Origin: Yuukianura sp. NJ FZ-2021
Taxonomy: Eukaryota
Assembly (NCBI GenBank): GCA_046563655.1
Contig: CM102286.1
Coordinates: 8,990,001-9,054,000, forward strand
Length of the DNA: 64,000 nucleotides
Direction: 5' to 3'
Below the pieces are notes generated by a model that ran no database searches, was not told the origin of the DNA, and saw nothing but the letters and a program-made list of their open reading frames with translations. Below, piece by piece: positions 23,901-26,900 of the stretch (position 1 is the first letter of the stretch; every line of letters begins with the position of its first letter). A program made the translations under genes and the position numbers.

Positions 23901-26900
23901 TTGGAGTATAGGATCTTTTTTTTAAATGTATAATTGTATGATAAAGCCTGTGCACTTTGCCAGTTTTTTTTGTCACAATTCTCATGGGAATGCAGAAGTA
24001 AATTACATGGAGGAAAAGACTATTACTATTCTTTATGCAACTGTGGCCAGAGATTCTGGTTCGGTAACACAACAACCTTTATAACCTTCGCAACCTTCAT
24101 GTAATCTTCGGAAAAACCAAGGCAACTAAACCAAAAGACACACGTATGTCTTTTTGTTTAGTTGCTTTGGGAAAGACCAAAAACAAAAGTTGTTTTGGAA
24201 AAACTATTTTGGTTGTAAAAGATCCAGATTCATATGAGTTTGCGAATTAATTAATTATTTTTGGAGAAGTTTTCATGGCAAACTGGTTTCAAGATAAGAT
24301 CTTTAGTTCTAAAAGAAAACAATAAGGAAGGAGGAAGGCATTGGAAGCTACACTGCGACTAGAAAGTAGAGAGTACTACTTACGAAATTGTGGACTAAAA
24401 TATATACGAGACAATTGCAATTCTGTTTACCAATTACTCTTTCATACTCGCTCTATCCACAGAATTCCAATAATGGTTTCAATTGAGAACGGAGCATATC
24501 GCCTAACCAGTATTACGCAATGCCCACCCGGAAAATTAAAATTAGTTTTTGATTTAGGGTGTGTTGATCATCCCGTTTTTGGAAAAGCTTCTCAACTTTG
24601 CGGAGAAGTTCCATTTTTTCAACCACAAGAGTAAGTTTTAAGATGAAAATCAATATTTAAAAACATTATTCCAGGGTTAGTTTTTTTTAAGATTAAGTTG
24701 TTACATAATTTTCAGAGTGATGACAATGTCAAACTACTTCGAGATGACGCAGGAAGAACAAACTAAAATTCTGGATGATTCTATCAAGCGTCTCCGCTAC
24801 ATTCTGGATAACTTGGACGAAGAAGAACTGCACAAATACATACATGCGAATATCCTGGCTGCTTGCTTGTGTTTTCCAATTATCGACGTTCGTACTATCC
24901 GATTTGAACTTGCTCTATTATGCATACTTGGTGGTAGTATGGGTGATGATTTGGAAGACGATTTCAAGTTTTTGTTGGAGGATGTTGGCGAGACCAATCG
25001 ATTGCTCATTGACAAAGTAGATTTGGATTGGAAAGCATTCAAAGCAAGCCAAGATTCTCTAGATAGCCGTCTCAAGGGGTTCACTGGGTTAATTCGTGCG
25101 AACGAAACTGAAAAAAATCAACGCATCTTTGCCGAAATTATGGCAAAGATGAAGGAAGAGTTTCAGAGGGATATCCAGATGATGTCAAACATTGCATTCC
25201 GCAAGCCATAGGTATTCTTCAGTGTCAGACGTTGCGCTACAGGGCGGATGACCCAATGCCTCTCTCAGAAGACATGCAGAAGATTATTCGTGGCTACGAT
25301 GCAGGGTTTGGTCCATGCGCAGAATTTACAATAATATTTCTTAGGCTATCCATCCCAAAGAAAATTAGGAAAAGTCTTATGTTTAACCTTTTGACGACCG
25401 CAGTTATGGACTTCGCTGGACTCCTCAATGATTTACTTGGGGTGTTGAAAGACGTCAAGGAAGAAGCTTTACGAGAGAACTACATACTTCGCTGTGTCAC
25501 ACGAGAAGGAGCCCCGTTACAACAGGCATTTAATGATGCATTTAAGCGACTTCGAAACTTGATATCTGACATCGAAATCCTAATCTACCGTTTGTTGGAA
25601 GCCTTTCCGGAAGAAAAGGGGCTCCGTGCATACATTCAAGCGTGTAAGGAGGTTTGTGACGGTCAAACAATAAGTTACGTCGTTGGTGCACAAAGTACCA
25701 AGCGCTACGGCGGCACTCTAAAAATAATGCCAATGGAGAACGTTGGGTGAACGAATTGTAGGTGATTTATGGAATTTATGAAACAGCATTATAATTAGTA
25801 AAATTGTAAAGCATTATAATTAGTAAAATTGTAACACCATTACTAAACTTCTAGATTTCTTGGAAAAAAACTTGGTGGGTATATTGAATATTAAATTGAC
25901 TTAAAAATTTGCCCTTTTTTTCTCCATTTCAGGTTTTATTTTGGGGGACCTAATTTTAAAGGTTTACATCACAAATTTTCTGCCACATCTCAAATGTGAT
26001 TCACCATTCTCTTCGAATCATAAAATTGTCTTAACAAGCAAACTGAGTGGTGAAGAGATTCCATAGGCTAAAAAAAGTTTTTTGAAATAAAGCTGGAAAC
26101 GATTTAAAACATATCCAGGTCAAAAAGTGAAAGTGTCGATTGCTCCTGGCTTACTGAATGAGTCTCAAAAAGCGTGAATAAAAATAATAATAATAAAAAT
26201 ATGAGATGAGTGGGTGTAGAAGAAACAAACAGTGATTCATGTTACCTTCATTTTTGCAAACGTTAGTAAGTAAAATATGTAGTAGGATCTTAACAGTAAC
26301 ACCCACCCCTAGTTTTGATTAATCGACTGAAAGAATAATGGAGAAAGCGATAACTGTATCACATTATTTATAACCTACCCCATTTGTGAACTTTTTGAGA
26401 AAATAAACTGTCCCCTACGTTATTTATGCACTGCAAAAATAGCTATTTTGCAAAGGAAGAGATAGGAGGTTGGAAACACAAGAGCACAAAATCCAAATTG
26501 ATTTTAAGACATGTGCAGAAAAGAAAACGAGTTTAAAAACCTGAAACTTCGTGTGTATTACATAATATTGGAACCTGCACAAGGCATTTAGTGTTGGTGG
26601 ACGCTTAAACGCCCAGTGGCTTAATTGCCACTTCCAGTGGATATCCACTGGAAGAAACGCGCCCCAAACGGACGAAACTAAAAGTGGATGACAGAAATCA
26701 CAAATTTTGGGCGAAATTCAAGTCATTTCAAATTTAAATTTACGAAATGATATCAGAAAGCTTTACTTTCGTGATTATAGTTAATATATTATTTAAAACG
26801 TATTCAAAAACTATATTTACATAGTTTTTGTACTGTGTTTTCATGTTTTTTAGTTTTTTGTAGTCAATTAATTCAAATTCGGAGGGGAAACCCGGTGAAT

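Follow-up and report, generated by a model that had tools for sequence, protein, structure and literature searches.

The window analysed here, a 64,000-nt stretch of the Yuukianura sp. NJ FZ-2021 assembly GCA_046563655.1 (contig CM102286.1, positions 8,990,001 to 9,054,000 of the forward strand), contains at 24473..25750 a gene that very probably belongs to the microbial-type, alpha-domain-only class I terpene synthases and is integrated in the genome of its host. The reading that we narrowly prefer is that this gene is a two-exon member of the springtail terpene synthase family, nested antisense in an intron of about 26 kb in a PHLDB-like gene, with a one-base deletion in its second exon that leans towards being real. 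As a kind of gene it offers little novelty; springtail terpene synthases have already been published (PMC11665903, PMC13638087).

The gene starts with the ATG at 24473-24475 on the forward strand and ends with the TGA at 25748-25750. Exon 1 (24473..24630, +; 158 nt, comprising 52 codons and two bases) encodes the N-terminal segment MVSIENGA...FDLG...FGKA...QPQ, and exon 2 (24716..25750, +) encodes the terpene synthase alpha-domain and has the frameshift inside it. Between the two lies a spliceosomal intron of 85 nt (24631..24715, +) in phase 2, running from GTAAGT to TTTCAG, with a GC content of 21% (0.212) versus about 42% in the exons. The locus encoding the nearest relative, P0003, on metagenome contig L001, contains an intron of 452 nt at the same codon position and in the same phase, with CAAGA before the splice site and GTAAG after it, while the intron of a second metagenome locus, L002, is 59 nt long and lies a few codons off the position of the window intron. 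Because position and phase recur in L001, and approximately the same place in L002, the intron can be taken as genuine from these alignments, as the first-pass annotation had described it.

A Pfam scan of exon 1 alone detected no family; despite this, comparison with the relatives indicates that the exon is genuine coding sequence. A counterpart upstream in L001 shares 58% identity over 52 residues and likewise starts with MVSIENGA, and a counterpart in L002 shares 66% identity over 29 residues. The N-termini of more distant relatives, encoded in a single open reading frame (ORF), also align with exon 1 (FDLG...G...L.G...QP). In a third locus, L003, a search of the 582 nt preceding the match gave no counterpart, and a fourth, L004, begins inside the gene. 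The ORF calls of the closest relatives, which are of the prokaryotic style and 318-346 residues long, begin at exon 2 and thus omit the part encoded by exon 1. No second terpene synthase copy was detected in the window, either by tblastn with 50 relative proteins (45 matches and five cluster members) or by blastn of the locus. Capture of the gene by a transposon was considered and rejected, as no terminal repeats were seen around it.

The family assignment draws on profile matches, relatives, and predicted folds. The C-terminal half of the protein matches Pfam PF19086 (Terpene_syn_C_2) at 30.6 bits, with a cut-off of 23.7 (E 3.5e-7; profile positions 106-197 of 199), and the nearest clusters in the Atlas are PF19086 families (score 0.96); the best of its unnamed clusters (score 0.86), which are fungal, gave no lead. 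A phmmer search among 1.84 billion representatives returned 45 relatives at E<=1e-3, 13 of them at <=1e-10 and two at <=1e-30. The best of these is P0003 (E 4.7e-42; 45% identity over the matched part). PF19086 is matched at E<=1e-3 by 25 of the 31 rows of alignment A3. A word-indexed search with the C-terminal half produced 113 candidates and none at E<=1e-5, which is uninformative, since phmmer does find relatives.

Structure prediction was applied to the relatives. The AF2 model of P0003 (predicted local distance difference test, pLDDT, 87.6; predicted template modelling score, pTM, 0.87) retrieved 225 PDB matches at E<=1e-3 with Foldseek, headed by pentalenene synthase and other microbial class I cyclases (E about 1e-7, template modelling (TM) score 0.66-0.72). 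The model of a second relative, P0016 (pLDDT 88.6), aligns with selinadiene synthase, sestermobaraene synthase and others at Z 30.6 and a root-mean-square deviation (rmsd) of 2.5-2.6 A over 310-311 residues; for a wider set that includes T-muurolol synthase, Z is about 30 and the rmsd 2.5-3.0 A over roughly 300-314 residues. In the P0016 model the segment corresponding to exon 1 forms a beta-hairpin (residues 13-36, pLDDT 90-94), and a short strand follows the C-terminal RY pair. The solved cyclases mostly align from about residue 28-34 of this model.

These results agree with the first-pass annotation, which had called the gene microbial-type terpene synthase-like: the PF19086 score, the motifs, and the fold of the relatives all support that description, and the structure prediction it had proposed, made on P0003 and P0016, leads to microbial class I cyclases. 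It had also named, as outcomes that would speak against such a gene, the lack of an isoprenoid synthase fold or a placement among the trans-isoprenyl diphosphate synthases (trans-IDS); the best fold matches of the relatives are terpene cyclases. An identity as a trans-IDS or an insect IDS-like terpene synthase was rejected, as an NSE-type motif stands where a second DDxxD would be expected and no polyprenyl synthase profile matches the C-terminal half at E<=1. Several observations weigh against the family assignment. The proposed PF19086 comparison, run on the two halves separately, succeeded for the C-terminal half, while the N-terminal half alone has no match in Pfam. P0003 itself scores 21.2 bits against PF19086, just below the cut-off of 23.7. 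The modelled folds are those of P0003 and P0016, which are 23-45% identical to the window protein. A sequence search of the PDB with the C-terminal half reached no further than caryolan-1-ol synthase, a bacterial cyclase, at E 0.31, and the N-terminal half retrieved nothing.

All four catalytic motifs that the first-pass annotation had described were confirmed at their positions. The Asp-rich first metal-binding site, DDLEDD (DDxxD form; 24945..24962, +), corresponds to columns D85, D86, and D89 of P0003, which are at least 90% conserved. The Arg at the sensor position, within IIRGYD (25289..25291, +), precedes the Asn of the second metal-binding motif by 46 residues, and this spacing between Arg and NSE Asn is canonical for microbial-type class I terpene synthases. 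The counterparts of these two residues in P0003, R196 and N242, are invariant in alignment A2. The second metal-binding motif, NDLLGVLKD (25427..25453, +; Asn codon 25427-25429), has the form NDxxGxxxD and is conserved throughout its clade; when compared with the general pattern (N/D)Dxx(S/T)xxx(E/D), it agrees, with Gly in place of Ser/Thr and Asp as the last residue. The RY pair near the C-terminus (25703..25708, +) corresponds to R334 and Y335 of P0003, both at least 90% conserved. The role of the Arg as diphosphate sensor follows the account in PMC13638087 and, in part, general knowledge of the family.

The Gly and Asp of the second metal site had been taken in the first-pass annotation as a possible sign of altered activity. 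A pattern tally over the 45 phmmer hits found NDxxGxxxD in 16, NAxxGxxxD in six, and NDxxGxxxE in three. The canonical NDxxSxxxE was found once each in 11 proteins, among them the two-domain protein P0010, whose other domain has the single instance of ADxxSxxxE; nine hits did not match the pattern. In the tree described below, all 11 rows of the clade that includes the window sequence have the G..D form. Because this form is conserved across the clade and is reported in active sponge enzymes (PMC9992776), NDxxGxxxD is the normal, fixed state of the clade and not a sign of decay, and by analogy with the sponge enzymes it does not in itself suggest altered or lost activity.

A maximum-likelihood tree was built from 36 rows, with 11 hits of fewer than 250 residues omitted, the two domains of P0010 entered as separate rows, and the window sequence read through with an X at the frame break. 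It pairs the window sequence with P0003 (support 100/99) within the all-G..D clade of 11 rows (98/95), and an 11-row S..E group stands apart from the rest (100/98). The terminal branch of the window sequence has a length of 0.98 versus 0.51 for its sister P0003. In the S..E group, the single-ORF proteins P0018, P0055, P0070, and P0071 have hydrophobic N-termini resembling signal peptides, which the window protein does not have. Two relatives are much longer, P0010 with 779 and P0051 with 801 residues; a single ORF in P0010 encodes a pair of terpene synthase domains, one with ADxxSxxxE and DExxD followed by one with NDxxSxxxE, and the halves of P0010 fall in different subclades. As read from ORF translations, L001 contains a multi-exon eukaryotic neighbour with ABC transporter-like exons (3400-6200, -), and L003 contains transporter-like and BTB-like exons, likewise multi-exon and eukaryotic (1900-5800, -). 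The GC content of both contigs is 0.40-0.41. Since multi-exon eukaryotic genes lie on the same contigs, these two relatives, although recorded as metagenomic, come from a eukaryote.

The terpene synthase gene lies antisense within an intron of about 26 kb in a minus-strand gene of the FHA/coiled-coil/PH type (PHLDB-like), the arrangement that the first-pass annotation had proposed. The host exon upstream of this intron (31948..32091, -) matches residues 1160-1210 of the Orchesella protein P0064 with 75% identity, and the exon downstream of it (5793..5939, -) matches residues 1275-1319 of the same protein. Beyond the latter lie the exons of the PH domain (3749-4015 and 2799-2975, -), which is recognised by Pfam. 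With Orchesella and Folsomia proteins as queries, tblastn recovers a run of minus-strand exons that lie in order between 40604 and 2799. The best named relatives of the PH exon are from Allacma fusca (75%), Orchesella dallaii (71%), Folsomia candida (64%; a 1654-residue protein with FHA and PH domains), and a cricket (62%). Six host exons share 51-86% identity with Orchesella and 44-80% with Folsomia, while five of the same six match Gryllus at 30-78% and the sixth has no match there. GC at the three codon positions is 0.53/0.33/0.41 in the terpene synthase gene and 0.56/0.36/0.46 in the host gene, and GC is even over the window as a whole. Because the intron is conserved, host exons lie on both sides, and the composition is matched, the gene is host-encoded, as the comparisons indicate, and most likely resides in a springtail genome; the integration that the first-pass annotation had deduced thus holds. 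On the other side of the balance, the springtail assignment was made with one host gene against named arthropods, and its identity to the three springtails is moderate.

The second exon is interrupted, at which the first-pass annotation had merely hinted by speaking of a frame-corrected protein. At 25163..25164 (+) the window is one base short, reading TTT-CAG where related contigs read TTT-C-CAG, and the coding sequence passes from the frame of 24717-25163 to that of 25166-25747, the second frame being open from 25112. In a tblastn search with P0003 as query, the first frame is matched up to 25160 by residues 8-153 of that protein, and the second frame, from 25079 on, by residues 111-343. A TAG at 25209..25211 (+) closes the first frame, and the product as assembled is a stub of 217 residues that includes the first metal site and lacks the sensor Arg, the NSE-like motif, and the RY pair. 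The function of this particular copy is doubtful because of the frameshift. Rescue of the frame by splicing was considered: a GT..AG pair at 25096-25166 (71 nt, found by eye) would restore the frame, but it is weak at its donor site (GTGCGA) and resembles exons in GC, and its removal would also delete 24 residues that are aligned in the relatives, including a conserved Pro; this candidate was rejected.

For comparison, contigs from four public DNA runs, X1-X4 (two studies, with organisms coded A and B), were aligned to 24300-25900. X1 contains 61 related contigs, in identity classes of 15, 15, 11, and 20. A C inserted behind 25163 is present in three X1 contigs (depth 265.4 of 326.6), one X2 contig (6.99 of 6.99), and one X4 contig (73.1 of 73.1). 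The extra C restores a Pro (P155) whose alignment column does not vary in A2 and reaches at least 90% conservation in A1. Judged by these alignments, the relatives have one base more than the window copy at this site. None of the contigs agrees with the window at 24651, 24680, 24704, 24718, or 24806; over 24464-24613, a pair of short X4 pieces shows no difference from it.

We lean towards a real deletion, in a null allele or in a paralogue disabled very recently, over an error of the assembly. The missing base does not fall in a long homopolymer. Elsewhere in the window, about 5.3 kb of coding sequence (11 matches to host exons, two ORFs with EF-hands, and an ORF of 753 codons) keeps its frame, which counts against a generally indel-ridden assembly. 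In addition, the window branch in the tree is longer than that of its sister. A less probable but serious alternative is that the animal itself has an intact, working gene, the missing C being an error of the assembly consensus. In support of an error, the C is present in related contigs of three of the four runs and the relatives have a two-base run of C at the site. Against an error, a change from CC to C is unlike the usual long-homopolymer error, and the window copy has private substitutions relative to all aligned contigs. Other observations also weigh against a real deletion or limit the comparison. There is no further stop or frameshift in about 397 codons and all catalytic motifs are intact; by depth arithmetic, the X1 contig most similar to the window seems to have the extra C; and the length of the window branch may be owed in part to exon-1 columns that are absent from P0003. 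The inserted C was not seen in X3 (0 of 99.2), where the listed contig fits only from 25161, and the four runs contain relatives and not the exact allele of the window, so that they do not test the assembly itself.

The origin of the DNA has been weighed in the same manner. That contaminant microbial DNA was misassembled into the contig is next to impossible in our view: the microbial type of the family is the one thing that speaks for it, set against a spliceosomal intron conserved in relatives, host exons flanking the gene on one contig, and uniform GC. The horizontal acquisition suggested by the first-pass annotation was not borne out, with only 45 relatives found by phmmer and codon-position GC that is host-like. 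Among 69 pattern matches in 185,579 prokaryotic species (a motif-seeded scan based on a 5-row alignment), none was a relative, and because no close prokaryotic relative was found, recent transfer is unsupported by the searches. A recent acquisition from a bacterium or fungus is accordingly improbable. The fold and Pfam family are those of microbial cyclases, and an ancient transfer into springtails is considered in PMC13638087; against a recent event, there is no close microbial relative, the best matches are eukaryote-like metagenome contigs with the same intron, the best PDB sequence match is the bacterial cyclase at E 0.31 mentioned above, and the composition is wholly host-like. An ancient transfer may have occurred. 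We consider an origin of the window in a sponge, with the gene as a sponge-type type I terpene synthase, to be more improbable still. It was suggested by the motifs, since the sponge enzymes are described as characterised by the combination of DDxxD, NDxxGxxxD, and RY (PMC9992776, PMC13483135), and the NDxxGxxxD string is confined to sponge papers among the literature matches listed. The host exons are closest to springtail proteins and then to those of a cricket, no sponge protein is among the 13 matches of the PH exon, and the springtail affinity of the host exons contradicts a sponge source. The springtail family member with a deletion that leans towards being real is the reading we retain.

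Membership in the springtail family is in keeping with what is published. Canonical terpene synthases with active enzymes were described in 2024 from Allacma fusca and Folsomia candida (PMC11665903), and a 2026 survey reports 277 terpene synthase genes in 21 of 26 springtail genomes, with a mean of 13 per species (PMC13638087). According to that survey, 55% of the springtail genes have at least one intron, the genes form a distinct clade of unresolved origin, and four of five Sinella enzymes are active, on substrates from farnesyl diphosphate (FPP) to geranylfarnesyl diphosphate (GFPP). Such a multi-copy family is consistent with the large number of related contigs seen in the public runs. As described in these papers, the collembolan enzymes (AfTPS2, FcTPS2, and FcTPS5, PMC11665903; ScTC1-ScTC5, PMC13638087) resemble the window gene, whose host is most like springtails, in being alpha-domain-only class I enzymes of springtail nuclear genomes, with DDxxD, sensor Arg, NSE-type motif, and RY, and with introns frequent in their genes. 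The window gene and its clade have NDxxGxxxD, whereas the five characterised Sinella enzymes, compared by their description in PMC13638087, have the NSE triad NDXXSXXXE; furthermore, the window copy, unlike the collembolan genes described, is frameshifted.

The sponge type I terpene synthases (uBuTS, AcT1TS; PMC9992776, PMC13483135) share with the window gene the set of DDxxD, NDxxGxxxD, and RY motifs, and are reported to be likewise animal-encoded, alpha-domain-only, and weakly matched by standard terpene synthase profiles. Here, in contrast to the sponge enzymes, the host is an arthropod, and while the sponge genes are reported to be mostly intron-less, the clade of the window gene has a conserved intron after an N-terminal exon of 53 residues. 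To the bacterial and fungal sesquiterpene and diterpene cyclases, including pentalenene synthase (1ps1, 6wkc), selinadiene synthase (4okm), and T-muurolol synthase (9hqd), the likeness lies in the fold, as seen in the models of the relatives, and in the motif logic with its 46-residue spacing from Arg to Asn. The differences are a sequence identity of 10-19% in the structural alignments, a eukaryotic gene structure with an intron, the Gly and Asp of the second metal motif, and the extra N-terminal hairpin.

Other features of the window were recorded. Close to the gene there is a palindrome of 54 nt (24117-24170), about 300 nt 5' of the ATG, with two 27-nt arms that are 89% complementary and no spacer; a TATATA box lies upstream of the gene at 24401; and an exact 25-nt tandem duplication (25785-25834) lies a short way past the stop codon. 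One related contig in X1 has a series of small deletions over 25768-25804. The same host intron also contains a transposase-like ORF and an intron-less EF-hand gene. The former is the uninterrupted ORF of 753 codons (29073-31334, +), which looks transposon-like and has as its sole Pfam match DUF1258, at 25.1 bits and below the cut-off of 33.1. The EF-hand gene is present in the window in two intron-less copies (12827-13646 and 60327-61145, +), each of about 163 codons from a MEGVRDM start; the copies are 90.6% identical over 831 nt, including upstream sequence, and both match Pfam EF-hand families. A word-indexed search found no relatives of the EF-hand protein, which is uninformative, as the same type of search missed the relatives of the terpene synthase. 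One frame of a tandem repeat at 14247-14546 (-) reads CCQLQ repeatedly. The GC-richest 2-kb bins are 2001-4000 (0.462), which includes the PH-domain exons, and 62001-64000 (0.451), compared with about 0.37 elsewhere.

As to catalysis, substrate, and biological role, the predictions concern the intact form of the gene. The enzyme would bind a prenyl diphosphate (FPP, geranylgeranyl diphosphate, or GFPP) via three Mg2+ ions, which would be held by DDLEDD and NDLLGVLKD, and the diphosphate would be gripped by the sensor Arg together with the RY pair. Ionisation would then lead to cyclisation of a carbocation within an all-helical pocket, while exon 1 would contribute an N-terminal beta-hairpin specific to the family. 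The use in defence or pheromone chemistry that the first-pass annotation had suggested would be a candidate role. The copy as assembled would yield the 217-residue fragment alone, with the first metal site as its sole catalytic element.

The analysis illustrates that a single window can suffice to establish that a terpene synthase gene is encoded by its host, through a matching composition, an intron shared with relatives, and host exons that flank the gene. The unusual Gly/Asp metal motif is the mark of a whole clade instead of a trace of decay, and the N-terminal exon is one that ORF-only gene calls overlook. The frameshift is a caution against counting the window copy as a working enzyme. 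Finally, the motif held in common with the sponge enzymes, and otherwise rare, raises the question of a common origin of animal terpene synthases. That the G..D springtail clade and the sponge type I terpene synthases share a specific common origin seems to us unlikely, though less so than a recent acquisition from microbes, and in the published trees, as presented in PMC13638087 and PMC13483135, the sponge and springtail enzymes are not placed together in either. If the common origin were true, two orphan families of animal terpene synthases would represent one old animal lineage, or a transfer across phyla, and not two separate microbial acquisitions, and the conserved N-terminal hairpin exon would be part of the ancestral design.

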